DNA from: Candidatus Dadabacteria bacterium
GTDB lineage: Bacteria; Desulfobacterota_D; UBA1144; Nemesobacterales; Nemesobacteraceae
Direction of reading: 5' to 3'
NCBI GenBank assembly: GCA_009840385.1
Contig: VXNX01000013.1
Location: 84,723 to 148,722, forward strand
Length of the DNA: 64,000 nt
The position numbers were made by a program, and so were the translations under genes. The notes below the pieces were generated by a model. That model had not been told where the DNA came from and searched no databases. It saw only the letters and a program-made list of their open reading frames with translations. Below, in pieces: positions 4,957 to 45,253 of this stretch. How positions within the stretch are numbered: the stretch's first letter is position 1; the number at the start of each line of letters is the position of its first letter.

Positions 4957-7287
4957 ATGAACTTGGAATCCTACATCTCAACAATTCTCGCCCGCCGCTG
5001 GCTGACCATTCTGCTCTCTTTGCTTGTTATGCTGGTCCTTGCCGCGGGAGCCACGCGCTTGATTGTGGTGGACGTAGACTTCCGCAACCACTTTAGTAAA
5101 TCCGACCCACACCTCGTTGCACTCGAACAGCTTGAAGAGACATATGCACTGTCCGATGTCGTATTGGTTGCCATAGCACCGCATGACGGCACCATTTTTA
5201 CACGGGAAACGCTTGTTGCCATTGAAGAGATGACCAAGCAGCTTTGGCGCACCCCGTACGCCACCCGCGTCGATTCTATTTCAAACTATACGCATAGCGA
5301 GGGGTTTGAAGACGAGCTGGTTGTTGAGCAGCTTATAGACGAAGCCAGTTCCCTGAGCGATACCGATATACAACGAATCATGGATATCGCGCTCGGCACT
5401 GAGGAAGTTGCCGGGCGATTCGTCTCCCGTGACGGACGAGTTGCAGGTCTGGTTGTCAGTATTATTCTTCCTGACGACAATAGGGAATTGGCCAAGCGAG
5501 AGGTTACTGACTACCTGTATGAAACTGTTGCCGACGCCGGGGAGAAATATACATCCATCGACTACCACCTTTTAGGTGGACTCATCCTCAATCGTGTCAT
5601 AGGTGACGCGCTTGATGATGAAACGGCCATCCTCGGGCCCATTGCTCTTGGAACCATGCTGCTTGTCGCCTTGGTTCTGATACGTTCGATATGGGGGACA
5701 CTTGCCATTGTGCTGATGATTGCTACCGTCATCCCATCCGCGCTGGGCTTTGCCGGGTGGACAGGCTTAAGACTGTTTGGTGAAAGCGGTGCCGCAATGT
5801 TCGTGCTGATGGCCGTGACCGTCGCTCACTCCGTGCACATTATTGAGGCAATGGCCGGGGGCTTACGCCAGGGCATGACGAGAACAGAAGCGGCAATCTA
5901 TGCCGTGCGAGTGGACGTGTGGCCTATTTTCCTTACCTCGTTCACAACCGCAATCGGATTTCTGAGCCTGAATTTCGTAGATATGCCACCGTTTAAGGTC
6001 ATGGGTAACATCGTGGCGTTCGGTTCCATGTGCGCTTTCGTCTTTTCGGTGACTCTGTTGCCCGCATTCCTGTCACTATTACCTATTCGTCCCCGGAAGC
6101 TGCGCGAAGACAAACAGGATTTTTTCGATCGTCTCAGCCGTTTTGTCATCTCCTATCGTACGATCCTTCTGTGCTTCTTTGGCATTGTGACTGTCTTTCT
6201 GGTTGCAGGCATTTCCAAGATTGAGCTTAGGGAGAACTGGCTTGAGGTTCTTGACGAGAGTTACGAGTTCCGGCGATCCGCGGATTTTCTGAGCGAGAAT
6301 TTCCCTGGCGTGGAAACCTATGAGTACTCTCTCGATTCCGGCCGTGAAGGCGCCGTCACGGATATAGAATACCTAAAACAGGTTGAGTCGTTTGCGGATT
6401 GGTACCGGGAGCAACCGGAATTTGTCCATATCTTCTCAATTGCCGATATCATGAAGCGTCTTAACAAGAACCTGCATGGTGATGACCCGGATTACTACGC
6501 CCTTCCCGACGATCCTGACCTTGCTGCGCAGTACCTTTTGCTTTACGAATTCTCTCTTCCGGTAGGCCGCGATCTGAACAACCTGATCGACCATGACCGG
6601 AGGGCAACACGCGCAACGGTCTCAGTGAAGAGTATGTCCAGCAAGGAAAAGATCGATCTTGACGATCGTTCACGTGCGTGGCTGCGGCAAAATGCCCCCG
6701 GCATGGAAACCGGCGCTACAGGAATTTCGATTGTGGGGTCTCATTCGATTCAGAGGAACATTGAAAATATGTTGCAGGGCACTTTTGTGGCGATGGCCAT
6801 CGTCTCCCTGCTGCTGTTCGCCATATTCAGAAGCATACGCCTGGGACTGGTCAGTTTGATCCCCAATTTCCTTCCGGCCGCTATGGCCATGGGACTGTGG
6901 GGGTATTTGGTGGGAGAGGTAGGAGTTCCAGCGGCGGTCGTCACCGCTATAGCATTCGGCATCATCGTGGATGACACCATCCACTTCATGACAAAATATA
7001 CGGATAGCAGAAAAGCAGGGAAATTGCCTTCGGAGTCCGTTCAAATTGCCTTTCGCTTGGTGGGCAGGGCACTGTTTACAACTACCGTAGTGTTTGGTCT
7101 GGGCTTCATGGTGTTCGGAGCATCCGGGGTGGTGGGAAACCAAGTGCTTGGTCTTTTGGTAGGAATAACGGTAATTATTGCTCTACTGGCAGATTTCTTC
7201 TTTCTTCCGCCGCTTCTGATGCTACTTGACGAGACCAAGGAAACCACCGAGGAGATTAGGGAGAGATTGAGACGCTCAACCGCATAG
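4957..7287 (+). CDS. RND-superfamily exporter (MMPL/HpnN-like, COG1033-type, two 6-TM bundles)
   Basis: 776 aa. N-terminal TM, large periplasmic loop, 5-TM bundle, second loop, second bundle. This architecture and sequence style match HpnN/MMPL lipid exporters. Confidence 0.8.
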   Translation: MNLESYISTILARRWLTILLSLLVMLVLAAGATRLIVVDVDFRNHFSKSDPHLVALEQLEETYALSDVVLVAIAPHDGTIFTRETLVAIEEMTKQLWRTPYATRVDSISNYTHSEGFEDELVVEQLIDEASSLSDTDIQRIMDIALGTEEVAGRFVSRDGRVAGLVVSIILPDDNRELAKREVTDYLYETVADAGEKYTSIDYHLLGGLILNRVIGDALDDETAILGPIALGTMLLVALVLIRSIWGTLAIVLMIATVIPSALGFAGWTGLRLFGESGAAMFVLMAVTVAHSVHIIEAMAGGLRQGMTRTEAAIYAVRVDVWPIFLTSFTTAIGFLSLNFVDMPPFKVMGNIVAFGSMCAFVFSVTLLPAFLSLLPIRPRKLREDKQDFFDRLSRFVISYRTILLCFFGIVTVFLVAGISKIELRENWLEVLDESYEFRRSADFLSENFPGVETYEYSLDSGREGAVTDIEYLKQVESFADWYREQPEFVHIFSIADIMKRLNKNLHGDDPDYYALPDDPDLAAQYLLLYEFSLPVGRDLNNLIDHDRRATRATVSVKSMSSKEKIDLDDRSRAWLRQNAPGMETGATGISIVGSHSIQRNIENMLQGTFVAMAIVSLLLFAIFRSIRLGLVSLIPNFLPAAMAMGLWGYLVGEVGVPAAVVTAIAFGIIVDDTIHFMTKYTDSRKAGKLPSESVQIAFRLVGRALFTTTVVFGLGFMVFGASGVVGNQVLGLLVGITVIIALLADFFFLPPLLMLLDETKETTEEIRERLRRSTA

Positions 7288-7363: not shown

Positions 7364-8407
7364 CTACGGATTATAATACTGACCATCCGGATAGAACTGC
7401 CTGCAGTAGCGCCGATACTTCCCGATATCGCCGTCAACGCTGCAAAGCCTTGGAAGTGACCGATGTTTTAGATTGCTCCAGATGACGACATCCTGCATGA
7501 CGTCATGCTCCTGGGAAGCAATGAGGACCTTGTTCATGAGGCGGGTCCTGAGTCCCAGGGGAAGGAGCCGCAGCCCGTGGCCCACTCCCTTCAGATTACG
7601 AAGTTGTCGCACTTGGCTCACCAACGTCAATTCAATAATTTTGCCATCAATCGGTGTTGCAAGCACCCACAGGCGGGTGTCCATATTGATCGAATGTTCG
7701 TGAACCTCGACAATTGAATAGCCAAGCCCGTGTATACTGGCGACCGCAGAAACGTCGTACTCGAAAAGCTTGATGCCAGCAACTGTAAGGTTACGTTTGA
7801 AGTTAAAGGAGTTCCTGAGGAAGGTGCCGTCAATCGATACCGAACCGACAATGTTCACACTGTTGTAGTGGTGCACATAGTTAAGGTGTGCAACATCCAC
7901 GGAGTTCTCGGTAGTTTCCTGGGGATGTCCCGGGAAACGGAGGTGGCAGAATTCCATCCCGCTCCAGTCGGTATCCGTTGTGGAGATTTCGGGCAGGTGC
8001 CATAGAGGTTCTCGACCGCCGCTGCCCCACCAACCAAAAATGAGACCCTCTATCTCTCGTGTCTCGAACACCTTCAGCTTGGCGGTTTTTGGCGGAGGAG
8101 CGAAGGGTGTCGCCACGCATTGACCGCTCACGTCAAACTCGAAACCGTGAAAAGGACATACGAGGCAACCGTTGCGCACCCGCCCCCCTGCCTCAGGGCC
8201 AAGATCGGCTCCAAGATGCGGACAGACCGCCTCAGCAACACAAACGTTCCCTTCCCCGTTGCACCAGACAACAATCTGTTCTCCAAGCCAAGTTCTCTTT
8301 AAGAGTCCCTTTTTTTCAATCGTCTTGCGGCTGGCAACAAAATACCAGCCTTCCGGAAATGGGTAAAGCAAGGCTTCATCCTTGCGCACGTTTGAGTTTG
8401 GATTCAT
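7364..8407 (-). CDS. Rieske [2Fe-2S] non-heme-iron oxygenase, alpha-subunit type (KshA/Neverland/SdmA-like)
   Basis: CPHLGADL...CPFHGFEF Rieske ligands, plus the mononuclear-Fe motif ENSVDVAHLNYVHH (E-x3-D-x2-H-x4-H). Confidence 0.85.
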   Translation of the reverse strand: MNPNSNVRKDEALLYPFPEGWYFVASRKTIEKKGLLKRTWLGEQIVVWCNGEGNVCVAEAVCPHLGADLGPEAGGRVRNGCLVCPFHGFEFDVSGQCVATPFAPPPKTAKLKVFETREIEGLIFGWWGSGGREPLWHLPEISTTDTDWSGMEFCHLRFPGHPQETTENSVDVAHLNYVHHYNSVNIVGSVSIDGTFLRNSFNFKRNLTVAGIKLFEYDVSAVASIHGLGYSIVEVHEHSINMDTRLWVLATPIDGKIIELTLVSQVRQLRNLKGVGHGLRLLPLGLRTRLMNKVLIASQEHDVMQDVVIWSNLKHRSLPRLCSVDGDIGKYRRYCRQFYPDGQYYNP

Positions 8408-8444
8408 TTGCTGTTATTCCGCTTATCCAGCGTTAAGTACCAGA

Positions 8445-8458
8445 AATGCATTTGCATT
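8445..8458. promoter_or_regulatory. Operator-like inverted repeat AATGCA-TT-TGCATT
   Basis: Perfect 6-bp arms with a 2-nt spacer. Lies between the -10-like motif (8466-8478) and the Rieske start codon (8407). Confidence 0.3.
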
Positions 8459-8465
8459 AGCTTCA

Positions 8466-8478
8466 GGGAATTATATAT
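8466..8478 (-). promoter_or_regulatory. Promoter-like motif (minus strand reads ATATATAATTCCC) upstream of the Rieske gene
   Basis: Canonical TATAAT followed by TCCC, ~60 nt upstream of the ATG at 8407. The same motif recurs at 13534, 32384, 41417 and 20281. Confidence 0.45.
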
Positions 8479-8763
8479 CTAAACCGAAAAAGTGTAAATT
8501 CTGCTTTTTCTCGTTTGTGGGGGGAATAATAATAAGCGTTTTGCTTGCCTTTTGTTTCTAGATCAATGCACAGCTAGCCTGTTCTCTTAACATAAACTCA
8601 TAACTTGTCCTTATGAAATATTTTGGTTGCAGACAAAATGGCATCCGTCTAGCCAAGTTGATCTTGAAATTGCATCTTTCATTAAATACTATACTAGTGC
8701 TGGTGGCGACCGGCTCGTTCCACAGGACTCTTTATGAGGCAGATGCCTTTGCTTCCGTGAACT

Positions 8764-8877
8764 ATGGAAAACCTTAGATACATAATCGCTTACCTGTTGG
8801 GCTTTGTGGCTATTGCTCTTGTGGCAATTCTGATAGTAGTCGGCGGTGTTACTCTAGTTCGCTGGATTTTTGGGTAA
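8764..8877 (+). CDS. Possible 37-aa single-TM small protein (MENLRYIIAYLLGFVAIALVAILIVVGGVTLVRWIFG)
   Basis: Found by reading the sequence; it is below the ORF-track cutoff. Strongly hydrophobic core. It ends 70 nt upstream of the SMT-like gene. No clear SD. Confidence 0.25.
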   Translation: MENLRYIIAYLLGFVAIALVAILIVVGGVTLVRWIFG

Positions 8878-8946
8878 TTAAAGGGTTAAGCCCATAACCA
8901 CTTATTGCGAAAAATAATTCCATAAATTTTATAGGGGAAACCTGCT

Positions 8947-9984
8947 ATGCAACTCCGCAAATTATTGAACGGACTGAAGACCGCGTACAGCGGGTCGAAC
9001 GTCGCCCGCCGCGTGCAATACTTCAATGGATGGACAGACAGGGCGTCCGCGGAGAATACCGGTGCGGCGGACTATGATCACACCAAGACCGTCAAGGAAT
9101 ACTACGACCTTTGCAGCGAGCTCATGGTGTTCGGCTGGGGCGAATCCCTTCACTTCGCACCGCTGTCGCCCCGCGAGAGCCTGGAGGACTCCAAGATTCG
9201 GCATCAGCGGCTGATGATTGCCAAGCTGGAGCTGCACGAGGGGATGACGGTGGTCGATATCGGTTGCGGGATCGGCGGCCCGATGCGCCGTGTCGTCCGC
9301 GAGGCCGGAGTCAGGGTCGTCGGGGTCAACAACAATGAAATCCAGTTGGACAAGGCAAAATCGTTGAACGTTGAGGCAGGGCTCGACCACATGGTCGACT
9401 ACATCGCGTGCAGCTTCATGGACATGAGCGCCATCGCGGATGACACCTTCGACCGGGGCTACGCGATCGAATCGACGTGCCACGCGCCAAAAAAGACGGA
9501 CGCGTTCGCCGAGATCTACCGCGTGCTGAAACCCGGAGCCCTCTTCTGGGGTCAGGAAATGTGCCTTACGGACAAGTTCGATCCCGACGACAACCGGCAC
9601 CAAGCCATCAAGCAGGAACTAATGCACGGCATCGCGCTCAAGGATATCGCGACGATGGGCGAGGTGGACCGGGCGCTTGAAACCGTGGGATTCCAGGTCG
9701 TCGAGGGGGCGGACCTAGCCGTCGAGGAGAACGGTCCGACCACGCCGTGGTACCAACCCATGGAAACCCGGCACGGAACGCTGGACAATTTCCTGCCTAG
9801 GCTTCCGCTGGGGCGTAAGGTGTTCATCGGGGCATCCAGGCTGGCCGAGATACTGGGGGTGTTCCCGAAAGGTTCCGCGGAAGTCTTCAGTCTGATGGAT
9901 CGGACCGCCGACGCCTATGTCGCGGGCGGCAGGACCGGGGTCTTCACGCCGCTATATTGCTTCCTGGCACGCAAACCCCTCTAA
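8947..9984 (+). CDS. Sterol C-24 methyltransferase-like SAM-dependent methyltransferase (Erg6/SMT family)
   Basis: Collinear with yeast Erg6 as I recall it: EYYDL..FGWGESLHF, SAM motif VVDIGCGIGGP, YAIESTCHAP (Erg6 YAIEATCHAP), IYRVLKPG, and the C-terminal sterol-MT domain ending FTPLYCFLARKP (Erg6 FTPMMLFVARKP). Confidence 0.85.
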   Translation: MQLRKLLNGLKTAYSGSNVARRVQYFNGWTDRASAENTGAADYDHTKTVKEYYDLCSELMVFGWGESLHFAPLSPRESLEDSKIRHQRLMIAKLELHEGMTVVDIGCGIGGPMRRVVREAGVRVVGVNNNEIQLDKAKSLNVEAGLDHMVDYIACSFMDMSAIADDTFDRGYAIESTCHAPKKTDAFAEIYRVLKPGALFWGQEMCLTDKFDPDDNRHQAIKQELMHGIALKDIATMGEVDRALETVGFQVVEGADLAVEENGPTTPWYQPMETRHGTLDNFLPRLPLGRKVFIGASRLAEILGVFPKGSAEVFSLMDRTADAYVAGGRTGVFTPLYCFLARKPL

Positions 9985-10119: not shown

Positions 10120-11568
10120 TCAATAAGCTGCGCGTCTTGCAATTTCTTTAAGCATCTGCCTGAAAATAATCCAGTGGATTGGATAAAGACCATACCAGTA
10201 AAGCAGACCGCCGAGACCCAAGGGCTGGAAAACGGCCGTCTGCGTTATCTGACTGCCCCTTTCAGCGGGCTCGACTTCAAACTGAAGCCACGCCTGACCA
10301 GGCAACCTCATTTCCGCTCTCAGGCTCAGCAGTCGATTCTCTTCATACGCCTCAACACGCCAGAAATCCAGAGGGTCGCCCTGGCGCAAGTCGGTCGGAT
10401 GCCGCCTGCCCCTCCGCATCCCTACTCCACCCACCAGCAGATCAACCAGGCCGCGCAGATACCATATCCAAGTGGCAAAATACCAGCCCTGCTCTCCGCC
10501 AATGCGTCGTATGGGCGCGAAGGCTCGGGCGGGGTTCACTTTGACGACGGCCTGCTGGCGGTCAACAAGTTGTGAGCCGAAACGTCTTCTGCCCCAAGAC
10601 GGCCGGTTACCGCTTGAAGACACGGCGTCGCTCCAGCGGGTCTGGGCAATTTCCATATTTTCCTGCTTAAGGGCACGGTCTATCGCTTGGCGCACTCCCA
10701 AGGGATGTACCGGGAAACGCTTCAGGGCCGTTTTATCGCGGACGATGGTCTCGTTGCGTAAACCGTCAACGAGTTTCCTTCCCACCCGGGCGTAAAGGGG
10801 AGTCACAAGACCCAGCCAGAGACTTGAGAGATTGGGACTCAGTACAGGCACCGGAATCATGAAGCGCCGCACGCCGATCTGGCGTGCGTACTCCTGCATC
10901 AACTCACCGTAGGTAACCTGGTCAGGACCGGCGATTTCAAAAACCGCGCTGTCTTGCAGTTCCAGATCCAAGCCACAAATGAGATAGGCTATTACGTCTT
11001 CGATGGCGATGGGCTGGGTTAATGTTCTCACCCAGCTCGGGGTAACCATCAGCGGCAGCCTGTCAACCAGGCTTCGCAGCAACTCAAAAGAAAGCGATCC
11101 CGAGCCGATTATGATCGAGGCGCGAAATTCCAAGGTCAGGGGACCTTCTGAGGCCAGAATATCCCCTACTTCCCTGCGGCTCGCTAAGTGAGAGGAAAGT
11201 TCACCATCTCCGAACAAGCCTCCCAGATAAATAATTCGACGCACCCCATGTCGGCGTGCAACCCGGGCAAAATTACGCGCCCCGATACGGTCCTGCTCCT
11301 CGAAGTTGTCCCCGGAACCCATGGAATGGACCATGTAGTAGGCCGTGTCCACCCCTTCAAGCGCGATCTCGAGAGAATCAGGGTCAAGCACATCGCCGGC
11401 GATAATCCGGGTATCGGGGGAGAAACGACCGGCGAGATATCCGGGATTGCGGGCAAGACAACGCACCGGCTCTCCCCTTCCCTCCAAAGCCGGGACCAGC
11501 CGCCCGCCAACATAACCGCTTGCCCCCGTTACCAGTATAATCCGGTCTTCTTTCTTATCATCGGACAT
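10120..11568 (-). CDS. Atypical SDR / NmrA-like NAD(P)-binding protein with C-terminal DUF2867-like domain
   Basis: ILVTGASGYVGGRL Rossmann motif at the N-terminus. The ~150-aa C-terminal region resembles DUF2867 fusions. GC-rich by eye. Confidence 0.7.
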   Translation of the reverse strand: MSDDKKEDRIILVTGASGYVGGRLVPALEGRGEPVRCLARNPGYLAGRFSPDTRIIAGDVLDPDSLEIALEGVDTAYYMVHSMGSGDNFEEQDRIGARNFARVARRHGVRRIIYLGGLFGDGELSSHLASRREVGDILASEGPLTLEFRASIIIGSGSLSFELLRSLVDRLPLMVTPSWVRTLTQPIAIEDVIAYLICGLDLELQDSAVFEIAGPDQVTYGELMQEYARQIGVRRFMIPVPVLSPNLSSLWLGLVTPLYARVGRKLVDGLRNETIVRDKTALKRFPVHPLGVRQAIDRALKQENMEIAQTRWSDAVSSSGNRPSWGRRRFGSQLVDRQQAVVKVNPARAFAPIRRIGGEQGWYFATWIWYLRGLVDLLVGGVGMRRGRRHPTDLRQGDPLDFWRVEAYEENRLLSLRAEMRLPGQAWLQFEVEPAERGSQITQTAVFQPLGLGGLLYWYGLYPIHWIIFRQMLKEIARRAAY

Positions 11569-11611: not shown

Positions 11612-12523
11612 TTAAAAAACATCGCTGAGCTTTTTTGCTGTCCTGAGCTTTTCAAATGTGGTGTAGCGTAGCCCCTGCATAGCTCCAAGCGGAGCGTCGC
11701 TGAAAGGTATCGGCCCAATCTCTTGTGCTTTCTCAGAGAAAACAATCCGATACTTACCACTCTCCCCATATGGTTCGATCCGGTCAACCGGCGCATAGTG
11801 TGTGATTGCGGAAACTGGATTTGTTTGATAAGCGGCGATGTATTTAATCTTTCCAAGCATCCCACCAGAGATACGTATTGCATGCCAAGAGTCTTCTCCG
11901 AGAAAGACCTTCTTAAACCCCTCTTCACGTGCGGGCACTATTACAGTATCGGGTTTGTGCGAAGGCAAATTGGGCAGTATATCTTCAGTAGTAGCTCTTG
12001 GCGTAGCAACTGGTTTCGGAAACTCGAACACTCGCAAGCCCACCAATGGGAGTATTTGGAGGATTTCCTTTAGAAATCTCTTTGTATCCGCTTTCTCAGA
12101 TTCAGTCATCACAGGTTCTTGCGGAACATTACCGTTGGCCAAATGGCAGCGGTTAGCTTGCGCTGCACGATCCAGTAGCGCATATTCCAGCCAAGTAATA
12201 TGAGCCCGGTTGAGACCATCATTGGCTGAAACAAACACGATCCCATGATCCCAGAAATCCTTATCCTTATAGTGAGACTCAATACGTTTATGGACACCAT
12301 CCGCCTGACCAACATAAATAGTTGGCAACTCATCATCCTCATTCTCATAACCCTTTAACATATAAACACCGGCTCGAGTGAACTCAGGACGCTGCTTGAT
12401 TTCTGCCCATTTGGAACGTGGAAAGGCCAAACCGACCCCTGTCCAATTCATATGGTCAATCACCATAAGGCTTTCTGGGTCGCCATCGGGGACATATATG
12501 TGGATTGTAAACGCTTCAGCCAT
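11612..12523 (-). CDS. GIY-YIG nuclease family protein with C-terminal DUF4357-like domain
   Basis: AGVYMLKGY ... TIYVGQADGVHKRIESH (GIY / YVG / Arg-His block), then a ~110-aa C-terminal domain. Lower GC than its neighbours by eye. Confidence 0.7.
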   Translation of the reverse strand: MAEAFTIHIYVPDGDPESLMVIDHMNWTGVGLAFPRSKWAEIKQRPEFTRAGVYMLKGYENEDDELPTIYVGQADGVHKRIESHYKDKDFWDHGIVFVSANDGLNRAHITWLEYALLDRAAQANRCHLANGNVPQEPVMTESEKADTKRFLKEILQILPLVGLRVFEFPKPVATPRATTEDILPNLPSHKPDTVIVPAREEGFKKVFLGEDSWHAIRISGGMLGKIKYIAAYQTNPVSAITHYAPVDRIEPYGESGKYRIVFSEKAQEIGPIPFSDAPLGAMQGLRYTTFEKLRTAKKLSDVF

Positions 12524-13630: not shown

Positions 13631-13702
13631 ATGACCGCAACAGGTCACGCTCCCGAAATGAAACGTAGATTGAGTACGGCTGGACGAAGGATGCCCAGAT
13701 GA
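13631..13702 (+). CDS. Possible 23-aa upstream ORF (MTATGHAPEMKRRLSTAGRRMPR) coupled to the hydroxylase gene
   Basis: Strong SD (GGAAGGAG) 7 nt upstream of the ATG at 13631. Its TGA (13700-13702) overlaps the ATG (13699) of the next gene as ATGA. Confidence 0.25.
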   Translation: MTATGHAPEMKRRLSTAGRRMPR

Positions 13703-14334
13703 CCTATATAATAAGCGCAATCCTGGTGATGAGCGGATTTATGGCCGGAGCCCAGCTGGCCTACTCTAAGCTCTATGACTGGAGAATAGCCGAGGGAGAC
13801 GGCAGTCGTCTCAAGGACCGTTACAGAAATGCTTCAATGAACGGAACGATCGCCGTGGCGCTTTACCTTGTCGCGATCGTGATGTTCGGGGAACTCCTGA
13901 TAGACTTGGATGCAGCTTCCACCTGGTACAAGCCCATCCTTGTCCTGCTGCTTTACGATTTCGGGTACTACTGGCTGCATCGTCTGCTGCATGTGCGGAA
14001 AGTCATGCAGAAAGTGCACTGGGTTCATCACATGAACCTGCATCCCACTGCCGTCGACTCCCTGTATCTGCACCCGGTGGAAATGATCGCGGGGCTGGCT
14101 TTCCTGTTAATCTCGATAGTGATAGTGGGCCCCTTGGGTATCGGAGCGTTTCTGGCGGTCGTTTTGCTTCATACCATCATCAACATACTGCATCATACGA
14201 ATCTGCAGCTACCCTATCGTCTGGCATGGCTCGCGAACCACTGGGCCTCAAGTCACGATGCGCATCATAGCCAGGGAGGAAATTACGGAGTGATTACGCC
14301 TGTATGGGACTGGATATTCGGAACGCGCTCATAA
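13699..14334 (+). CDS. Fatty-acid hydroxylase superfamily membrane di-iron enzyme (sterol desaturase / C-4 methyl oxidase, Erg3/Erg25-like)
   Basis: Three His boxes (HRLLH, HWVHH, HDAHH) and 4 predicted TM segments in 211 aa. Confidence 0.8.
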   Translation: MTYIISAILVMSGFMAGAQLAYSKLYDWRIAEGDGSRLKDRYRNASMNGTIAVALYLVAIVMFGELLIDLDAASTWYKPILVLLLYDFGYYWLHRLLHVRKVMQKVHWVHHMNLHPTAVDSLYLHPVEMIAGLAFLLISIVIVGPLGIGAFLAVVLLHTIINILHHTNLQLPYRLAWLANHWASSHDAHHSQGGNYGVITPVWDWIFGTRS

Positions 14335-15410
14335 AAGGTCCCGTACTGGTAACCGGCGGATGTGGATTCATCGGAGGGGCGATTGTCCACGCATTGGCCG
14401 ACGAGGGGCGGGATGTGCGGGTAGTCAGTCCGCATTGCCATTCGTTTCGGTCCGACGTGCGATTTCTGAACGTGGATATCAGAGACCTGTCTGCCCTCGT
14501 CCGGGCTTGCCAAGGATGCGAGACGGTTATTCATTGCGCGTCCGTCGTACAGACCCGCAACACGGCACGGGATGAAATGTGGTCCGTGAACTACGGCGGG
14601 ACGGTCAACGTGATAGAAGCATGCAGGAGGGCTGGGGTACGCAAACTCGTGCATATCAGTTCGGCCAGCGTGGTTTTCGAGGGCAGGGATATCGAGGCCG
14701 GAGACGAGACCCTTCCCTATGCGGAAGTATCTATGAGCGCCTACGTGGACAGCAAGATAGAGGCGGAACGGCGTGTCCTGGAATTCGCTACAGAGGATGT
14801 AACCCGGGCATGCGCGCTGCGTCCTCACCTTGTCTTCGGTCCGGGAGACCAACGTTTCCTCCCGAACATTCTCAAACGGGCAGACGGGGCAGGTATCCGG
14901 GAAGTTGGTCGGAGGGAGAAGCTGTCCGATTTCGTCTATGTCGACAATGTGGTCGATGCCGTGCTGGCCGCGGAACGGGCCCTTGACTCGAACGGGCTGG
15001 TATCCGGTCAGGCATATTTCGTGACAAACGCGGAGCCGGTCCCGTTTTTCGAGTTCATAGAACGCCTGCTTATGGCGTCAGGGTACGGTCCCATCCGACG
15101 ACGTATTCCCTACTGGGTGGCGTACGCGGGAGCGGGCATTGTGGAGGGCTTCCATGCCGTGATACGACGGGGTTTGGTCCCGGAGGACGGCCTGTCCCGG
15201 TTCGCGGTCCGCTACTTGAATACGCATCACTACTTCCGTATTGACAAGGCGTGCCGCGACCTGCATTGGCAACCCCGCGTATCCCTTGCCGAGGGGATAG
15301 CACGCACGGCCGATTCGTTGCACGATTCGGCGTACGACAGGGCGTTACGTGTTCAACAAGAACCCTCTATCGCAAAGGAACCAGACGATAAAGGTGATGT
15401 CCCGCGATAA
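14304..15410 (+). CDS. 3-beta-hydroxysteroid dehydrogenase/isomerase-family NAD(P) enzyme (Erg26/NSDHL-like)
   Basis: VLVTGGCGFIGGAIV Rossmann motif, catalytic YVDSK (YxxxK), and extended-SDR architecture. Overlaps the preceding gene by 31 nt, so the two are probably co-transcribed. Confidence 0.8.
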   Translation: MGLDIRNALIKGPVLVTGGCGFIGGAIVHALADEGRDVRVVSPHCHSFRSDVRFLNVDIRDLSALVRACQGCETVIHCASVVQTRNTARDEMWSVNYGGTVNVIEACRRAGVRKLVHISSASVVFEGRDIEAGDETLPYAEVSMSAYVDSKIEAERRVLEFATEDVTRACALRPHLVFGPGDQRFLPNILKRADGAGIREVGRREKLSDFVYVDNVVDAVLAAERALDSNGLVSGQAYFVTNAEPVPFFEFIERLLMASGYGPIRRRIPYWVAYAGAGIVEGFHAVIRRGLVPEDGLSRFAVRYLNTHHYFRIDKACRDLHWQPRVSLAEGIARTADSLHDSAYDRALRVQQEPSIAKEPDDKGDVPR

Positions 15411-18128: not shown

Positions 18129-18947
18129 CTATTTGCGCCCTGTCGCTTCCCCCCAGGCAAAAGCCGCCAGCGCTCCAGAGGTGTCCTTCCACTCATCAAG
18201 CTTCCGGCGCCAGTCATCGAACTGTTCCTGGGTAGCAATACCGTATTTCGTGGCCGCTTCAACTGTATCAGGGGAGAAAAACCAAGCGCTAATGAAACCG
18301 TGAAGAAAATCAATGTCTTCGTCCGTGCAGAAAGGTTCGAACGAAACACTCGCACTTATGTCCGAGAAACCGGCCTCAACAAACAGCCGCTTGAGTTCCC
18401 TGCCGATCTGGGGGTGGCCCCCGTTAGCTTCGATAAGCTTCGCAAACGTTTCCCATCCGTCCCTCAACGAAGGCTCCAAAAACGAGGAATCAACAAACAT
18501 CTCCCGGCTTGAGATGATGCCGCCGGGCTTCAGGACTCTACGCACCTCCGCCAGAACAGCCAAGGTTTGCGGGGCGTGCATGAGAACGGCGTGACAGTGT
18601 GCGACATCAAACGAGTCATCCTCAAAGGGCAGATCTGCCACGTCAGCGGTCTGGAACACAGCGTTTCGGTGTCCGCCGGCATCCGCGGCGGCCCGTGCGA
18701 TCTCAATCTGCGAAGCCTCCATATCGACACCGAAAAACTCTCCGGGTTCAACCGCTTTTGCCAGTCCCACAGAAATCGTTCCGGGGCCGCAGCCGAAATC
18801 AAGAACGCGCATGCCCGGCTCAAGGTGCGGAAGCAGGTGTGCGGCGCTGGTCCCCGCATTGCGGCGCCTGAGCAGTTTCTGAAAATCGTCGCTGTATCCC
18901 ATGGTGTAGGCAGAAGTGGAAGCATCTTGGGTCTTGTTGCTGTTCAT
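18129..18947 (-). CDS. Class I SAM-dependent methyltransferase (substrate unknown)
   Basis: VLDFGCGPGT motif I and FDVAHCHAVLMH; Methyltransf_11/25-like. Confidence 0.8.
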   Translation of the reverse strand: MNSNKTQDASTSAYTMGYSDDFQKLLRRRNAGTSAAHLLPHLEPGMRVLDFGCGPGTISVGLAKAVEPGEFFGVDMEASQIEIARAAADAGGHRNAVFQTADVADLPFEDDSFDVAHCHAVLMHAPQTLAVLAEVRRVLKPGGIISSREMFVDSSFLEPSLRDGWETFAKLIEANGGHPQIGRELKRLFVEAGFSDISASVSFEPFCTDEDIDFLHGFISAWFFSPDTVEAATKYGIATQEQFDDWRRKLDEWKDTSGALAAFAWGEATGRK

Positions 18948-22264: not shown

Positions 22265-23083
22265 TCAGGCTAGCGCAATGATGAACAGGCGAGGGAAAGG
22301 ATACAGCGTACGGTTCCCCGAACCCCTGGGATAAGCATCCCGAAGCCGCCGCTTGTATACTTTTAAAAACCGGTTTCGTTCAGTATCGGACAAACCATTT
22401 AGAATCGGGCGCAGACCGCTGCCCATAACCCATTCAAAAACAGGATCATCGCCCTCCAGCACATGGAGATACCGTGTTTCCCAGATATCAAGGCGTCGCG
22501 TACAGGGAGAAAGGATATCATAGTAAAAGTCCGCATCTTCAACCCATTTGTTCGACAATGTGGCAAGAAGCGAAGTGTCGCCAACGGGCTTCCCGTCGGG
22601 ACCGCCATCTGCCAACGTATTCCGCATCAAGCGGTGAGACGGAAGATCCCAGCTAAGCGGCATCTGGACCGCAAGGCAGCCTCCCGGGTTAAGGTAGCCC
22701 ACCAAGCGCGCAAACAGTTCAGAGTGGCCGTCAACCCAGTGCAAAGACGCATTGGAATAGATAAGGTCCGGGGCTTCCTCCGGCACCCAGCTGCGGATAT
22801 CGGCATCTGCCCAGTGTACGGTCGACGGCTCCGCAGCCGCCTCGGCCAGCATCTGTGGTGAGTTATCGATACCGTATACCTTGGATGAGGACCAGCGCTT
22901 CGCCAGAAGACGGGTTATGTGGCCTGAACCGCAGCCCAGATCATAGATCACACCCGGAGCCTCAAGGGGTATACGATCCAGCAACTCAAGGGCCGGTCGC
23001 AAACGCTCCTGGGAGAACTTCAGGTACTGACCGGGGGCCCAGCGCGTTCCGGCAACCTCGCCCTGATGCGCTCTTTGCGACAT
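22265..23083 (-). CDS. tam: Trans-aconitate 2-methyltransferase-like SAM methyltransferase
   Basis: WAPGQYLKFSQERLRPALELLDRIP and IYDLGCGSGH. I chose the start at 23083, which has a GAGGAAA SD, over the ORF-track start at 23149. Confidence 0.75.
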   Translation of the reverse strand: MSQRAHQGEVAGTRWAPGQYLKFSQERLRPALELLDRIPLEAPGVIYDLGCGSGHITRLLAKRWSSSKVYGIDNSPQMLAEAAAEPSTVHWADADIRSWVPEEAPDLIYSNASLHWVDGHSELFARLVGYLNPGGCLAVQMPLSWDLPSHRLMRNTLADGGPDGKPVGDTSLLATLSNKWVEDADFYYDILSPCTRRLDIWETRYLHVLEGDDPVFEWVMGSGLRPILNGLSDTERNRFLKVYKRRLRDAYPRGSGNRTLYPFPRLFIIALA

Positions 23084-23175
23084 GCGATTTCCTCGCTCCA
23101 CCCCTCGGAGATGTCCGCACGGTTTTTTGTGCGGAGTGGTCAGCAACATCGTCTTTTTAACTTCAGGAACTACGA

Positions 23176-37152: not shown

Positions 37153-39036
37153 ATGGGCACCACGCTGCACATAAGAGACAACATCGAGCAATCCTACGGG
37201 GACGTGTACACGCCGGAGGCGCTGGAGGCCCTTGAATTCATGGCCCACTTCAACGGCGAGCAGAAGGCCCTCATGGAAAAAAGGACCCAGAGAAGAAAAA
37301 GGCGCTATGAATCCAAGGAAAGAATAACTTTTCTTGATCCAGATTCTCTTATCCCGCGCACCAATCTCAAGATCCAGGACGCAAGGGACGGAAAATTCGA
37401 GGGGCCGGAGATTCCCCACGACCTCAAAACACAGTGGATACAGGGAACGGGCCCAGCGGCAAAACCGAACTCCCCGGTTGAGAAAAGCATAAGAAACGTC
37501 GCCTACGCCCTTCTCTCGGGCGCGGACGGGTGGATGTTCGACGGCGAGGACGCCCTGGGGCAGATATCAACGATGTCCCTTGACAATCAGCGTAATCTAA
37601 AGCTCGCAATCGCGAGGGACGAAGTGTTCATGAAAACCGCGGAAGGCGTGGCCGGGGAAATGAACAGGTGGGGACGGGATTTCTTCGGACACGACATAAT
37701 CGAGGACTGGGAAAAGCAGCTTGACTTCACCACCGTTATTTTCAGGGCGAGGGGACTTCATCTGGACGACCGCCACATACGCGACGCCGATGGCGTAGCG
37801 CTTTCGGCTTCCGTGGTCGACATGACACTCTTTGTCGTTAACAACTACAAGGAGCTTGCCAAGAGAAACTCATCCATAGTCCTTTACCTGCCTAAGATCC
37901 AGACCGCCGAGGAAGCCGCGCTATGGAACGAGATGCTCAGCGCCCTTGAGGGCCACATCGGGCTTCCCGAAGGCACGATAAAGGTATACGTGCTTATAGA
38001 GCAGCTCGAGGAAACCTTTCAGCTGATGGAGATAAGGGCAGTTTTGGGCAAGCACTTCGCCGGGTTTAACACCGGCAGGTGGGATTACATAAACAGCGTC
38101 TCAGATGCCATGGCGTGGGATGAGGATTTCGTTAACCCGAACATAGAGTCAATCACCATGACCTACGGATACATGAGAAACTACGAGGACCGCGTGAGAA
38201 GGGCCGTAAACACCCCGGACGTAAACGGGAACTTTGCGCTCTGGCAGGGAGGCATGGAACCTAACATACCGGTGGGGTCGAAAGAGGGGGTCGAGAGCAG
38301 CATGGAGAAGGCCTACGCGGGGGCCGTAAGGGAGCAGCAGGAAGGAGCAAGCGGCAAATGGGTTGCCCACTGGAAGATGGTTCACATAATAAGGCCCGTC
38401 TGGGAGAAGGTCGGCGAGGAGAACCAGCTCGGAAGGGAGTTCCCTCCCCTTACCTACACCCAGGAGGACGCAGACGGCCTCATACTTCTTGAGCCCGCCC
38501 CGAGAACGATAAGGGGGGCGCGCAACCTGCTTAGCGTCGGACTTCAGTACGGAAACGCATTCGGCCAAGGATTCCAGGCCGCGGCACTTAAGCCCGCCGA
38601 CTTCTTCGGAAACGACGACATCCTCTACCTGATGGAGGACGCCGCGACCGGGGAGATAAGGCTCAGCATACTCTGGGAGTGGATCCACAAGGGAGCGGAA
38701 CTCACCGAGGACGACCCCGAGACGGGGCTTAAGGCCGGGGACACGTTCACCGTCGAGGTCTTCGAGAGGCTTCTTGAAGAAGAATACGCAAAGCTCCAGG
38801 CGGCAAGCGACAGGGACGTCCACGACATCTCTAAGCCCACTACCCTTCCGATAGCAAAGCAGATAGTGAGAGCCTACGTGCTTGACGACGTAAAGGTGCC
38901 GTGGTACATAGACCTGCTCAACATAAACCTAAACAACCACGACCACGAGGTGGCCTCGCAGAGAATCGAACTCTACATGACGGAGTTCGCGGGCAATGAC
39001 ACGAGAATCACCGAGAACCTCGATTTCGTAATCTAG
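37153..39036 (+). CDS. aceB: Malate synthase (A-type core, extended, 627 aa)
   Basis: [50 protein letters not shown]. Confidence 0.85.
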
Positions 39037-39080
39037 GTTCCCGAAAAAACAACCATTTTTATTTTCAGGAGAGCATATCG

Positions 39081-41354
39081 ATGAGCCAGTTAGAAGCTGA
39101 GATAAGGAAGACGAAAAGGTATTTCTCAAGCGCGCGCTTCAGGGGAATAACCCGTCTTTACTCGCCCCGCCAGGTGGTGGAGCAGAGAGGAACCATAAGA
39201 AGGGACTACTCGATCGCGAAAAACGCCGCGGGAGCGTTCTACAAGAGACTCCGCGAGCTTTTCGCCGAGCGAAAGCAGATAACGTCCTTCGGCCCCTATT
39301 CGCCCGGCCAAGCGGTCATGATGAAAAGAAAGGGAATAGAGGGCATATATCTCGGCGGATGGGCCACGTCGGCAAAGGGATCGATCGGCGAGGACCAGGG
39401 AGCGGATCTCGCGAGCTACCCGCTTAGCCAGGTGCCGGACGAGGCGGCCCCCATAGTGAGGGCACTTCTCGCCGCGGACAAGAACCAGAGATACAACCGC
39501 GCAAGGATGACCGAAAAGGAAAGGCAGCAGACGCCCGAGATCGACTACAGCCCCTTCATAATCGCCGATGCGGACACGGGGCACGGCGGCGACGCCCACG
39601 TTAGAAACCTTATCAGAAGGTTTGTCGAGGCGGGCGTTACAGGCTATCACATAGAAGACCAGAAGCCCGGAACCAAGAAATGCGGTCACCAGGGCGGAAA
39701 GGTTCTCGTGCCTTCCGACGAGCAGATAAAGAGGCTTAACGCCGCCCGGTTCCAGCTCGATATCATGGAAGTGCCGGGAATAATAGTTTCAAGGACCGAC
39801 GCCGAAGCCGCCACCCTTCTTGACGGAAACGGGGACGAGCGCGACCAGCCGTTTGTCCTGGGAGCAACCAAGCTCAACATCCCAAGCTACAAAAACGCCT
39901 ACCTTACTATTCTTAAAAGAATCCACGAAAAAGGCGTAAAGGAGATAAACGGCCACAAGCTCTACAAGATAAGCAAAGAGGTCTACGCGGAAACGGACAA
40001 GTGGCTTGAGGAAACCGGCATAGCGTCGTTTATTGACGAGAATATAGAAGCAATGAAGGGGGATACCCAGGAGCTTGAAACCGCTTTGGATTCCGTAGTC
40101 ACCAAGTTCGTCGAGATATGGGAAGAGGAGTCCGGCCTCAGCACCTTCGGCGAAACAATAGAAACGCTAATGGAGTTTAACATGGAGCAGGGCATTGAAT
40201 TCGATATGACCATCGAGCAGTGGAGGGAGTTTGCCAAGACCGCCTCCACTAAAGACGCCATGGAGAAAGCTGATTCTCTGGGAATCGACTACATATGGGA
40301 CCCCGAGATTTCAAGAACGCCCGAGGGATATTCCCAGGTAAAAGGCGGAATCGAATACGCGATCGCGAAGTCGCTTGCCGTGGCGCCCTTCGCCGATCTG
40401 CTCTGGATGGAGACCAAGACGGCTGACCTTGAGGACGCAAGGCAGTTCGCGGACGCCATCCACGAAGTGTTTCCGGACAAGATGCTTGCCTACAATCTCT
40501 CTCCTTCCTTTAACTGGGACACGACGGGAATGACCGACGAGGAAATGAAGAAATTCCCGGAGGAGATAGGGAAGCTCGGCTTCGTGTTCGATTTCATAAC
40601 CTACGGAGGCCACCAGATCGACGGCATGGCCGCCGAAGAGTTCGCGACCGCGCTCATGCAAGACGGCATGCTCGCCCTAGCGCGCGTGCAGAGAAGGCTG
40701 AGGCTCATAGATTCGCCCTACAAGACTCCGCAGACCCATGTCGGAGGACCCCGCATGGACGGAGCGCTCGTGGCAAGTTCGGGAAGAACCGCAACCACGA
40801 AGGCCATGGGCAAGGGTTCGACCCAGTTCCAGCACCTAGTTCAGACGGAGGTTTCGATCAAGCTTCTCGAAGAGTGGCTCGAGGCCTGGACAAGGCACTA
40901 CAAGATTGAAGACAGCTTCACCGTTGAACTCAAGCCTCACACCGTGGGCACTTTCGTGCTTGAACTGGACATCATGAACGGCAAAGGCGATAAGGTGGCA
41001 GATGTCATATTCGAGATACTGCAGGACAGAAAGGGAGAGAAGATACTGACGGTGAGGGACGAGAACAATTTTGACCCTGCCCTTCGCCAGAAACGTCTCG
41101 CTACCCTGCTTCACCTGTTTTTGATCCACCGCTACAGAACGGATTTCGTGCACTACGTGAGCCCGACAGAGGATAATCTCATGCAGACCAAGGGGATGAT
41201 GAGGCTTGGGATCTACGAATCGGTTAACACCGAAGTCGGTCACATAATAGTGACGAAGGTGAACGTCGAATACGTGAAGGAACTGCTTAGTCCCAACCGC
41301 AGGGAACTCAAGAAGCTTATCGCGAAAAAAACCGGTAGACGCAAAAAGAAGTAA
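39081..41354 (+). CDS. aceA: Isocitrate lyase, long form (757 aa, ICL2/eukaryote-like with inserted domain)
   Basis: ICL signature KKCGHQGGK, plus [11 protein letters not shown] and the SPSFNW block. Confidence 0.9.
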
Positions 41355-41605: not shown

Positions 41606-43096
41606 TCACCGTTTCCCCGGTCGGTAGGTCTGCACCCCCTTGGCCGCTTCTTCGGGCGTTGCACTCTTGTAACCCGCTTTGTATGTCTGCTTTTGCGGAT
41701 GGCTAAACCTGTCGGTAAGTTTCGCTACGCCCGCTTCGGCAGATAAAACGGCTTGCGATTTCATGGACATTCCTTTCTTCATGAACGAATCTATGTTGCG
41801 TAACATACTTGATTTCGGCAGCGGAACCAAAACATTCCTGATGTGATCCTCAGTCAGTTCATCCACAACCGCACCATGAATGTTGGCAATTAGTTGAATC
41901 TGCCCCAACGGGGATGTGAGGAACGAGCATAGATATCCGGCGGGACACGCCTTTTCCTGCGGCACGACACGCATAATGTGTTCGGAAGCCGCCCAGCCAT
42001 CCCACTCATCTGGGCAAATGGTCACGCGCCCTACGGTTCCAGATCGTGTAACGAGAACCCACCCGGCTTCAATCGAGACTTCGTCTATGAGTTCATGTTC
42101 TCGGGACAGGTATTTCAAGTCCGCTGCTTGGAATTGGACAACGTGACTCCCTTGGAGAAACGGCACCCCGTACTCGGGTTGGACGTAGATTCTCTTGAAT
42201 CTCTTTGGCATGAAAACTTCCGCAACATTCCGTAGCGGCACCGCATCCATTTCGCGCAATTGGTCAAGGGCGTCGAAAAGGGCAGGATTGTAGTGTCCGG
42301 CATCGATTCTGAGTTCCCCGCTCAGGTGCGTTGACCGAAGGGAGAACCAATTGGCTTGGGAACAGTCTGCCGATGACGTTACCGGGATGGTGTCCACGGC
42401 CTTGCGTACCAAGGTCGCTGCTTCCGAGCGTTCATCGACCGATGCTGTCATTGCAGTCTCAATCGAATGGACCAATGCTCTATCTTCCGCCGTTTCCGGT
42501 AAGGGCACGAGAATGTCTTCTGCTTGTTCTTCGGTTAGTTCATCGACCACCGCCCCATATATGTTTGCGGTCAACTGGGCTTGACCGAGTGGCGAAGCGA
42601 GGAACGCGGCTAGATAACCGGAAGGGCATTTCGTCTCATCTGGAACAATACGAAGGATATGCTGCGAAGCCGCCCAGCCATCCCATTCCGGCAGGCAGAT
42701 GGCAGTTCTTCCAATGGTTCCCGAGCATGTCACCAAAAGCCATCCGGCGCGCACTATCCACTGTTCGAGCCTATGGCTGGACAGGGATAGGTATTTGAGA
42801 TCGGCGGGTTGGAAGTGAACGACGTGGCTTCCCTGCAAGAATGGGATACCGTGTTCTCTCTCGACGTACATGCGTTTGAATCTCGGCGGGATGAACACGT
42901 TTTCCGTGATGTCGGCCAATCGTTCGAGGCGCATGCCCGATTCATTCAAAGTGCGTAGCGCTTCGATCAGACGGGGACTGTATCGTTCCGCGTCAAAGCG
43001 AAGTTCGTCCGAGTCTGTCAGGAAGCCGGACGGCAGGACGTAGCTCTCCGTTTTGGACGGAGGTGCATGCTTGGGAGAGGGAACCGTTTGCAGCAT
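41606..43096 (-). CDS. Restriction-modification specificity (S) subunit with two near-identical target-recognition halves
   Basis: Two Methylase_S-like repeats. RFKRMYVEREHGIPFLQGSHVVHFQPADLKYLS aligns with RFKRIYVQPEYGVPFLQGSHVVQFQAADLKYLS. GWLLVTCSGTIGR...VPLP aligns with GWVLVTRSGTVGR...VPLP. Confidence 0.8.
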   Translation of the reverse strand: MLQTVPSPKHAPPSKTESYVLPSGFLTDSDELRFDAERYSPRLIEALRTLNESGMRLERLADITENVFIPPRFKRMYVEREHGIPFLQGSHVVHFQPADLKYLSLSSHRLEQWIVRAGWLLVTCSGTIGRTAICLPEWDGWAASQHILRIVPDETKCPSGYLAAFLASPLGQAQLTANIYGAVVDELTEEQAEDILVPLPETAEDRALVHSIETAMTASVDERSEAATLVRKAVDTIPVTSSADCSQANWFSLRSTHLSGELRIDAGHYNPALFDALDQLREMDAVPLRNVAEVFMPKRFKRIYVQPEYGVPFLQGSHVVQFQAADLKYLSREHELIDEVSIEAGWVLVTRSGTVGRVTICPDEWDGWAASEHIMRVVPQEKACPAGYLCSFLTSPLGQIQLIANIHGAVVDELTEDHIRNVLVPLPKSSMLRNIDSFMKKGMSMKSQAVLSAEAGVAKLTDRFSHPQKQTYKAGYKSATPEEAAKGVQTYRPGKR

Positions 43097-43097
43097 C

Positions 43098-44963: not shown

Positions 44964-45253
44964 GCCTGTACCTCTACCGACAGTCTGTTGTTGCTCACCA
45001 GCTTCCGGTAGGGCAGCATGAGTCCGCCTGTGACGATGGCCATCTGTTCGATAGTGTCTAGTTCCTGGATGTTGTGGCAACTAGCGAACTTATCTACGAA
45101 CCATCGGCGGGCGGCTTCCTCGTCGGGAAACATCCGCACCAGTTCTATGAGGGAAATGCCTTTCCTGTGGGCATTGGCGGGTGCCTTACGTGCCATAGTC
45201 TTCGTCCGTTGTAATTTAGGCTGAAGTATGCCCGAACCGGAATCAAATGCCAA
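44960..45253 (-). pseudogene. Internally deleted IS1595-family (ISXO2-like) transposase relic
   Basis: The N-terminal block SLIELVRMFPDEEAARRWF is joined directly to the C-terminal block HNIQELDTIEQMAIV..L.YRKL. The zinc-ribbon and DDE core are missing. Confidence 0.55.

Follow-up and report, generated by a model that had tools for sequence, protein, structure and literature searches.

A 64,000-nucleotide stretch of a Candidatus Dadabacteria contig (VXNX01000013.1; the whole stretch is called the window below) carries a gene whose predicted product is a full-length, intact member of the Erg6/sterol methyltransferase (SMT) family, and not a generic class I methyltransferase. By sequence criteria this protein belongs to a distinct SMT subfamily, defined here and called SMT-A, in which the residues that line the sterol side-chain pocket of canonical SMTs are replaced clade-wide and the S-adenosylmethionine (SAM) site, H90 and E195 are kept. 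We put at about even the chance that SMT-A methylates steroids or triterpenoids at carbon, with either a substrate or a regiochemistry outside the standard ones; a different methylation would be probable because of the separate branch, the rebuilt sterol pocket, the other neighbouring genes and a relative that failed on the usual sterols. The bare finding of a bacterial SMT homologue is not new, because sponge-symbiont SMTs have already been published.

8947-9984, plus strand: SMT-A gene, 345-aa SAM-dependent C-methyltransferase of the Erg6/SMT family, sponge-symbiont clade (open reading frame, motifs, Pfam, clade signature).

The gene is an intact ATG-to-stop open reading frame (ORF), and the opposite strand of the same interval is closed by many stops. 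A preliminary description of this DNA had taken the gene for a full-length Erg6-like homologue on the strength of its motifs, and all of the motifs it quoted are present in the 345-aa product, in the order EYYDL, FGWGESLHF, VVDIGCGIGGP, YAIESTCHAP, IYRVLKPG and GVFTPLYCFLARKP, far more than chance would give. The profile search that it proposed, and in which lack of a significant match was to count against the assignment, gave a clear match to Pfam Sterol_MT_C (PF08498) over residues 288-344 (55.3 bits; gathering threshold 21.7). Pfam class I methyltransferase models and CMAS (57.9 bits) also matched; there was no NCBIfam equivalog model for the protein. A PDB sequence search returned no solved SMT structure, its top matches being unrelated small-molecule methyltransferases, and matches to cyclopropane synthase structures were found as well. 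In the protein search, homologues reached E = 1e-208 at 100% coverage.

Residue numbers are those of yeast Erg6 unless the window protein is named. The Erg6 sequence used for alignment and numbering agrees with 35 of the 36 Erg6 residue identities quoted in the preprint of Brown & Welander; the odd one is position 175, which the preprint mutated to several residues, the one in the sequence used included. Residues M60, L68, Q203, M205, I229 and A230 of the window protein correspond to yeast positions 81, 89, 223, 225, 249 and 250. Alignment with Erg6 residues 27-368, nearly the full length, gave 34.5% identity (E = 9e-73). The Region II motif D125-x-G-x-G-x-x-G-P133 is complete (D125, G127, G129, G132, P133), and Region III, YAIE(A/S)TCHAP, is present as YAIESTCHAP with E195; H90 is there also.

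The sterol-binding regions are another matter. Where the canonical Region I reads Y81-E-[Y/F/W]-G-W-G-x-S-F89-H-F, the window protein has M81, V82, F83 and L89, although Y81 and F89 are held by 87-90% of other family representatives. Region IV has Q203/M205 (numbering of the window protein), fixed in 99-100% of the clade, at the place of Y223 and W225, which occur in 70% and 84% of other representatives, respectively. To define the clade, 150 SMT sequences from related loci were aligned with Erg6; 144, including the window protein, were SMT-A and the remaining six, adjacent paralogues, were of a second type, SMT-B. Among the SMT-A sequences, whose mean pairwise identity is 71%, Met81 is found in 143 of 144, Leu89 in all 144, Ile249 in 140 and Ala250 in 142, and position 78 is S, G or N; the SMT-B sequences have the canonical T78, Y/F81, F89 and G249. 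The SAM site, H90, E195 and W286 are invariant in both types, and the residues invariant across SMT-A comprise D125, G127, G129, G132, P133, Q154, D189, E195, W286 and H90.

Sixteen fixed differences separate SMT-A from the rest of the family (Y81M, F89L, E108Q, L111M, A112I, I137V, A143V, A191G, A196S, Y223Q, W225M, I245L, E246M, G250A, L290M and L348Y), and they cluster in Regions I, III and IV and in the 245-250 loop; position 249, Ile in SMT-A, is too variable outside the clade to be added to them. Within the mapped sterol-binding regions, these changes replace four conserved aromatics and two acidic residues. An exhaustive search of 1.84 billion representatives gave 262 family clusters at E ≤ 1e-30, and among the ~130 full-length ones examined the SMT-A signature was confined to a handful that belong to the clade. 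SMT-A is monophyletic, with a stem 3.4 times the median branch length. The window copy retains all 99 near-invariant SMT-A columns, and has the whole signature (M81, L89, Q223, M225, I249, A250) together with the intact SAM site.

Yeast Erg6 and plant SMT1-SMT2 (EC 2.1.1.41, 2.1.1.143) have in common with SMT-A the class I core, the Sterol_MT_C domain, DxGxGxxGP, YAIE(A/S)TCHAP with E195, H90 and W85/F91. They differ from it in Region I (M-V-F-GWG-ES-L-HF in SMT-A, Y-E-Y-GWG-xS-F-HF in the others), in Region IV (Q223/M225 as against Y/W), in the 248-250 loop (G-I-A as against G-[D/N/G]-G), and by E108Q and E246M. The SMT-B enzymes, which include active SMTs of Brown et al. (2023) such as JGIcombinedJ30088_10000835 '1 of 2', share the family and the kind of host with SMT-A, and sometimes a cluster (L085/L086; L numbers denote loci), but are only 42-45% identical to it, have a canonical pocket and, unlike SMT-A, have a demonstrated activity at C-24, where they attach one to three carbons. 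A parallel for a remodelled Region I is provided by STRM-1 and BmSTRM, the C-4 methyltransferases of nematodes and dinoflagellates, SMT-family enzymes that have lost the Region I aromatic signature and changed regiochemistry; their substrates are 3-ketosteroids, compounds of the class on which KshA-type oxygenases act and which 3β-HSDs form, and genes of both types lie near the window SMT. SMT-A has lost Y81 (Met81) and F89 but keeps F83, W85 and F91, and in this may differ from the STRM-1 type. Of the family representatives in which Region I is aberrant, none clusters with SMT-A.

Experimental work on the family bears on SMT-A in two ways. The Brown & Welander preprint gives 25 residues common to every SMT active in vitro, T78, F89 and L341 among them, and the window protein has 22 of these, the mismatches being T78S, F89L and L341M. 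Since Leu89 is invariant in SMT-A, no enzyme shown to be active can belong to the clade. In the docking of the same preprint, residues 81 and 249 flank the side chain of the sterol. In addition, a clade member seems to have been assayed already. Brown et al. (2023) reported that 8 of 10 sponge-metagenome SMTs methylate desmosterol, three bacterial enzymes yielding 24-isopropyl sterols, and described an Aplysina aerophoba contig (10000835) on which gene 9 is SMT '2 of 2' (JGIcombinedJ30088_100008359; 35.16% identity to ERG6), gene 11 is the propylating SMT '1 of 2' (42.36% identity to ERG6) and genes 12 onward are SMO/OSC, CYP51, ERG24, sdmA and sdmB. Locus L086 is organised like this contig; its SMT-B matches the synthetic '1 of 2' gene sequence, which is damaged by optical character recognition, and its SMT-A has 35.159% identity to ERG6 and 75.7% identity to the window protein. 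The 11 enzymes without methylation in the preprint equal in number the 11-row block of the supplementary alignment that starts with '10000835 2 of 2'. By this indirect identification, the enzymes assayed included an SMT-A member with 75.7% identity to the window protein, and it failed on desmosterol and 24-methylenecholesterol; according to the authors, such enzymes may need other substrates. JGIcombinedJ30088_100008359 and the window protein have a common pocket signature (S78, M81, L89, I249, A250), but the former is encoded in a de novo sterol cluster, beside a fusion of GPP34 (GOLPH3-like) and cytochrome P450 and in a non-Dadabacteria genome, whereas the window copy has other neighbours.

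The two SMT types also keep different genomic company. Context was counted at 100 SMT-A loci with at least 6 kb on both sides and at 80 loci centred on an oxidosqualene cyclase (OSC), the latter being the best 80 of the 403 stretches in species-level genomes returned by a cyclase scan. Squalene epoxidase-oxidosqualene cyclase (SE-OSC) fusions, present by definition of the scan in 80/80 OSC-centred loci, occur in 5/100 SMT-A loci; for CYP51 the figures are 70/80 and 3/100, for ERG24 69/80 and 12/100, and for SMT-B 56/80 and 3/100; in those 56, SMT-B is immediately next to the SE-OSC fusion, CYP51 and ERG24. SMT-A itself, which defines its own 100 loci, was found in 4/80 OSC-centred loci. The GPP34-P450 fusion, by comparison, is near 70/100 SMT-A genes (median gap 49 nt, usually convergent) and in 22/80 OSC-centred loci, and a KshA-like Rieske oxygenase gene is present in 66/100 SMT-A loci, from several phyla, and in 6/80 OSC-centred ones. 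One or the other partner occurs at 79/100 SMT-A loci, with both in 57; MMPL transporter genes occur at 16/100 and 16/80. Over all 158 SMT-A loci, the fusion, of ~680 aa (e.g., L005 11227-13254; L086 9072-11141), is immediately beside SMT-A in 99. In the window, the partner is the Rieske gene, which is divergent from SMT-A.

7364-8407, minus strand: KshA-like Rieske non-haem iron oxygenase, divergent from the SMT gene, recurrent SMT-A partner (Pfam, KshA structures).

Its product matches Pfam Rieske (PF00355, 65 bits) and KshA_C (PF19298, 89.8 bits) and aligns full-length with the 3-ketosteroid 9α-hydroxylase structures 4qdc and 2zyl (E = 1e-21). Assignment as the bacterial C-4 demethylase SdmA was rejected in favour of a KshA-like enzyme, the score being 30 bits against an equivalog cutoff of 600.

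According to a published study, GPP34_L, the GPP34 + P450 fusion, occurs in sponge symbionts of many phyla and nowhere else, and it was proposed there to modulate host phagocytosis (Microbiome 2025, PMC11706023). It is a different protein that is not encoded in the window, but SMT-A would seem to share this exclusivity. That paper draws no link from GPP34_L to sterols or methyltransferases, and because it mentions neither, the linkage with SMT-A appears to be unreported. Given this context, together with the 22 of 25 active-SMT residues, the clade-fixed pocket replacements and the inactive relative, only half of the preliminary description's phrase, a genuine SMT and not a generic methyltransferase, can be kept: the protein is not generic (Sterol_MT_C, Regions II and III, H90, E195), but the 'genuine' C-24 SMT part finds no support in that form.

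Some features of the related loci may be noted in their own right. The SE-OSC fusions (~1,130-1,170 aa) of the 403 stretches come mostly from sponge-named metagenome-assembled genomes (MAGs); those inspected (L159-L238, e.g., L086 2360-6022) form a very conserved cluster of ERG24, CYP51, SE/OSC and SMT-B, and are 65-92% identical across phyla. Several symbiont genomes have two or more SMT-family genes, either as two SMT-A copies ~110 kb apart or as tandem SMT-A, SMT-B and third-type paralogues, which points to repeated expansion of the family (L009 and L011 on one contig, CBDEGP010000002.1; L012, L016, L027, L052, L071, L167 and L232).

The sources in which SMT-A was found were all MAGs or metagenomes associated with sponges and represent at least eight lineages of bacteria, MAG hosts being judged partly by bin names. 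A protein search gave 1,935 matches, the best 120 being 77-89% identical; the few named entries among these 120 are Dadabacteria, Chloroflexi and Rhodospirillaceae MAGs. A close relative is encoded by at least 575 stretches of species-representative genomes, which qualifies the earlier remark that SMTs are rare in bacteria. The majority of the best 80 of these stretches are from Dehalococcoidia/Chloroflexota, many with sponge-bin names, and the others from Dadabacteria/Thermodesulfobacteriota, Alphaproteobacteria, Gammaproteobacteria, Nitrospirales, Gemmatimonadota, Binatia and Acidimicrobiales. All 78 matches in the JGI metagenome collection were from Aplysina, Petrosia or Sarcotragus sponge metagenomes, and syntenic relatives of the window locus include L109 and L140 (Aplysina) and L081 (Petrosia). 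Enrichment of SMT genes in Ircinia symbiont MAGs has been reported.

Within Dadabacteria the gene appears to be an old arrival. The window shows full synteny with MAGs labelled as Dadabacteria (PBP, histidine kinase, peroxiredoxin, MMPL, Rieske, SMT, SDR-DUF2867, GST, AcpH, HtpG), with neighbour proteins 91-95% identical, and so would derive from a Dadabacteria-like bacterium living with a sponge. The preliminary description had judged by eye that the SMT gene was more GC-rich than the Rieske gene, and it is: GC is 0.607 (0.80 at third codon positions, GC3) as against 0.528 (GC3 0.60), the whole window being at 0.517. The GC of the SMT gene in Dadabacteria is 9-10 points above its flanks, and in Chloroflexota, Alphaproteobacteria and Nitrospirales it equals that of the host genome. 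In the phylogeny, the sequences from Dadabacteria make up a single group inside a diversity dominated by Chloroflexota. Their synonymous divergence (dS 0.29) equals that of the neighbouring genes, whereas their nonsynonymous divergence (dN) is 2-3 times higher, the highest of the locus, giving an omega of 0.28 versus 0.08-0.24 for the neighbours; the excess change falls at the N-terminus and in residues 251-325, and spares Region I and the SAM motif. The raised GC, the nested phylogeny and the dS/dN pattern lead to a scheme of old horizontal acquisition followed by vertical inheritance, and indicate that a Dadabacteria-like lineage gained the gene from a high-GC symbiont donor; composition and phylogeny thus back the earlier suggestion of horizontal acquisition. 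The same comparisons indicate purifying selection with a fast-evolving periphery. Recent allelic replacement was rejected as the reason why the SMT is less conserved than its syntenic neighbours, since the rise is confined to dN and dS is level with theirs; a pseudogene or decaying copy was rejected as well, as all 99 clade columns are kept and the variation is peripheral.

We propose that SMT-A would transfer a methyl group to a steroid or triterpenoid other than the standard Δ24 sterols, or with another regiochemistry; the substrate may be of bacterial origin or may be obtained from the sponge. The KshA-like Rieske oxygenase encoded next to SMT-A would probably prepare this substrate or process it further, in other phyla the GPP34-P450 fusion would also take part, and the neighbouring RND transporter would probably move the lipid. 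STRM-1 offers a precedent within the SMT family, its Region I aromatics having been remodelled along with a change of regiochemistry. Several points weigh against this proposal. The substrate is purely inferred, and the linkage of SMT-A to the Rieske and P450 genes is a correlation only. The tested protein was matched to the clade via gene order, percent identity to ERG6 and the residue rules of the preprint, not via its sequence, and its failure comes from one E. coli lysate assay with two substrates, which poor expression or folding could explain. Pocket changes alone do not exclude C-24 activity, because position-249 mutants of a bacterial SMT (G249I and others; Brown & Welander preprint) still gave C28 sterols and so retained C-24 monomethylation. 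A few genomes of Nitrospirales and Binatia have SMT-A within a de novo sterol cluster, which fits an ordinary biosynthetic role. Finally, the 64-kb window holds no GPP34, P450 or cyclase gene, so that the GPP34-P450 partner is lacking.

These points lend some weight to an ordinary sterol C-24 methyltransferase, acting on a bacterial or host-derived Δ24 sterol with perhaps another nucleus (zymosterol, lanosterol or cycloartenol), in which case the failure of the relative in vitro would be technical or due to the choice of only two substrates. We regard this as rather unlikely. The full SMT architecture, the match to 22 of the 25 functional residues (H90, E195 and the SAM motif are all there), the tolerance of position 249 to Ile and other residues, the presence of SMT-A in OSC-containing clusters (L052, L076, L080, L085, L086), and the eukaryote-like sterol pathway reported in Dadabacteria all speak for it. 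On the other hand, all tested SMTs with activity have F89 and T78, whereas SMT-A has an invariant Leu89, and the four replaced aromatics are conserved ones thought to stabilise the carbocation intermediates of C-24 methylation. The gene context argues the same way, 95 of the 100 well-flanked SMT-A loci being without a nearby cyclase; where both types occur it is the canonical SMT-B that adjoins the cyclase, so a second enzyme for the C-24 step would be redundant. A catalytically dead sterol- or SAM-binding pseudoenzyme with a regulatory or binding role would account for the inactive relative and for the locus-high dN among Dadabacteria, but seems very improbable when D125, G127, G129, G132, P133, H90 and E195 are invariant in 144 sequences of 71% mean identity, omega is 0.28, and the extra variation is peripheral, outside Region I and the SAM motif.

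Loss of the aromatic pocket residues could also reflect a substrate that is not a sterol at all, such as squalene or another isoprenoid, a hopanoid or an unsaturated acyl chain. Botryococcus has SMT-like triterpene methyltransferases, to which such an enzyme can be likened, as it can to the related cyclopropane and mycolic acid synthases. In favour are the strong CMAS score, the matches to cyclopropane synthase structures and the absence of a cyclase from the neighbourhood of the gene in most host genomes; moreover, the best 80 of the 403 cyclase-bearing stretches include none from Dadabacteria or Chloroflexota. This explanation has to contend with the well-conserved Sterol_MT_C domain and Region III, with a recurrent partner of the steroid-acting KshA type, and with the apparent restriction to sterol-rich sponge hosts, which fits a steroid substrate; we think it improbable. 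Returning to a non-standard steroid or triterpenoid methylation, a bolder form of the proposal, and a long shot, is that SMT-A, the KshA-like Rieske oxygenase and the GPP34-P450 fusion make up a symbiosis-specific sterol-editing module that methylates positions canonical SMTs do not reach. Examples would be C-26 on a Δ25(27) side chain, giving aplysterol- or petrosterol-type sterols and precursors of 26-methylstigmastane, or the steroid nucleus of 3-keto intermediates.

Other features surround the SMT gene in the window.

8408-8946, no strand: AT-rich intergenic region, flanked by the divergent Rieske and SMT genes (GC ~0.40).
4957-7287, plus strand: MMPL/RND (HAE3-type) membrane transporter, candidate lipid/sterol transporter (Pfam, NCBIfam, synteny).
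10120-11568, minus strand: NAD(P)-binding short-chain dehydrogenase/reductase (SDR) fused to DUF2867, convergent (Pfam NAD_binding_10 + DUF2867, 117 bits).
13699-14334 and 14304-15410, plus strand: overlapping FA_hydroxylase and 3β-HSD-family genes, a strain-specific cassette (Pfam).

The half of the intergenic region that is conserved among Dadabacteria loci has a promoter-like TTTACA-17-TATAAT (11/12; minus strand, 8498-8470), and no riboswitch, SAM or other, was found upstream of the SMT gene by Rfam at E ≤ 1. The SMT-proximal half is variable, and longer in the window by ~140 nt that are missing from the syntenic Dadabacteria loci L001, L002, L008 and L015; this stretch holds a 37-aa, strongly hydrophobic small ORF (8764-8877, plus strand; MENLRYIIAYLLGFVAIALVAILIVVGGVTLVRWIFG) with no Pfam match. 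The transporter matches Pfam MMPL (122 bits) and NCBIfam HAE3 (161 bits), with HpnN and BstA weak and far under their cutoffs. Its gene is syntenic in all Dadabacteria loci, and in Alphaproteobacteria (L007, L038, L083) SMT-A is directly preceded by a homologue with 70% identity.

Membership of SDR-DUF2867 in the SMT-A module is tentative. The gene fills the convergent slot held by GPP34-P450 in other phyla, has a GC content (0.569) above the window mean, and its product weakly matches the 3Beta_HSD and SdmB N-terminal models; five of eight syntenic Dadabacteria-lineage loci have the gene, the slot of L140, which ends within the SMT gene, not being assessable. Between it and the GST gene, a 303-aa ORF (11612-12523, minus strand; GC ~0.46) with only sub-threshold GIY-YIG matches looks like a variable insertion, being found in L001 and L003 and not in other syntenic loci. 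The FA_hydroxylase (211 aa; Pfam 93 bits) and 3Beta_HSD (368 aa; 194 bits) genes overlap by 31 nt. All other syntenic loci lack the pair in this slot, which in L001 has an unrelated 289-aa ORF; a 39%-identical FA_hydroxylase is directly beside SMT-A in Nitrospirales L067 and L080. The 3β-HSD-family gene is GC-rich (0.587), as the SMT gene is, and the best NCBIfam match of the pair, OleD-like, is under cutoff. These enzymes are possibly steroid-related, and could be ERG25/ERG26-like or unrelated lipid enzymes; homologues of ERG25-27 have been reported from Dadabacteria by Hoshino & Gaucher.

The 64-kb window has no gene of the sterol core pathway (OSC, CYP51, ERG24), and the remainder of it is housekeeping. 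Two more class I SAM methyltransferases (18129-18947 and 22265-23149, both minus strand) are generic, without Sterol_MT_C, and 29-31% identical to the SMT over the methyltransferase core only. Further along are a malate synthase gene adjoining that of an unusually long, 757-aa isocitrate lyase (37153-41354, plus strand; glyoxylate shunt), the C-terminal extension of which has a weak, sub-threshold phage tail-chaperone match, and a type I restriction-modification specificity gene with an N6-methylase/HsdR-N fusion gene (41606-45080, minus strand).

Side-chain-alkylated steranes such as 24-isopropylcholestane and 26-methylstigmastane serve as the earliest chemical evidence for animals, and as of late 2025 the literature had not settled whether the methyltransferases responsible belong to sponges, to their symbionts or to both; our literature search found no paper identifying a C-26 methyltransferase. 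SMT-A is a very abundant, apparently sponge-restricted branch of the SMT family that differs from every proven-active SMT and has its own conserved partner genes, and its linkage with GPP34-P450 joins two independently reported hallmarks of sponge symbiosis. Were the sterol-editing module to exist, symbionts, perhaps cyclase-less ones, would produce or modify the 'unconventional' sponge sterols that serve as the oldest biomarkers of animals, and GPP34_L would be tied to host-membrane sterol chemistry and not to phosphoinositide binding alone. More immediately, genome surveys would count SMT-A as 'ERG6/SMT', and it is likely being counted as a bacterial C-24 SMT in surveys of sponge microbiomes. 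If SMT-A is not a C-24 methyltransferase, such counts would overstate the capacity for 24-alkylation, and SMT-A would be a defined, testable candidate for the missing sponge sterol alkylations.

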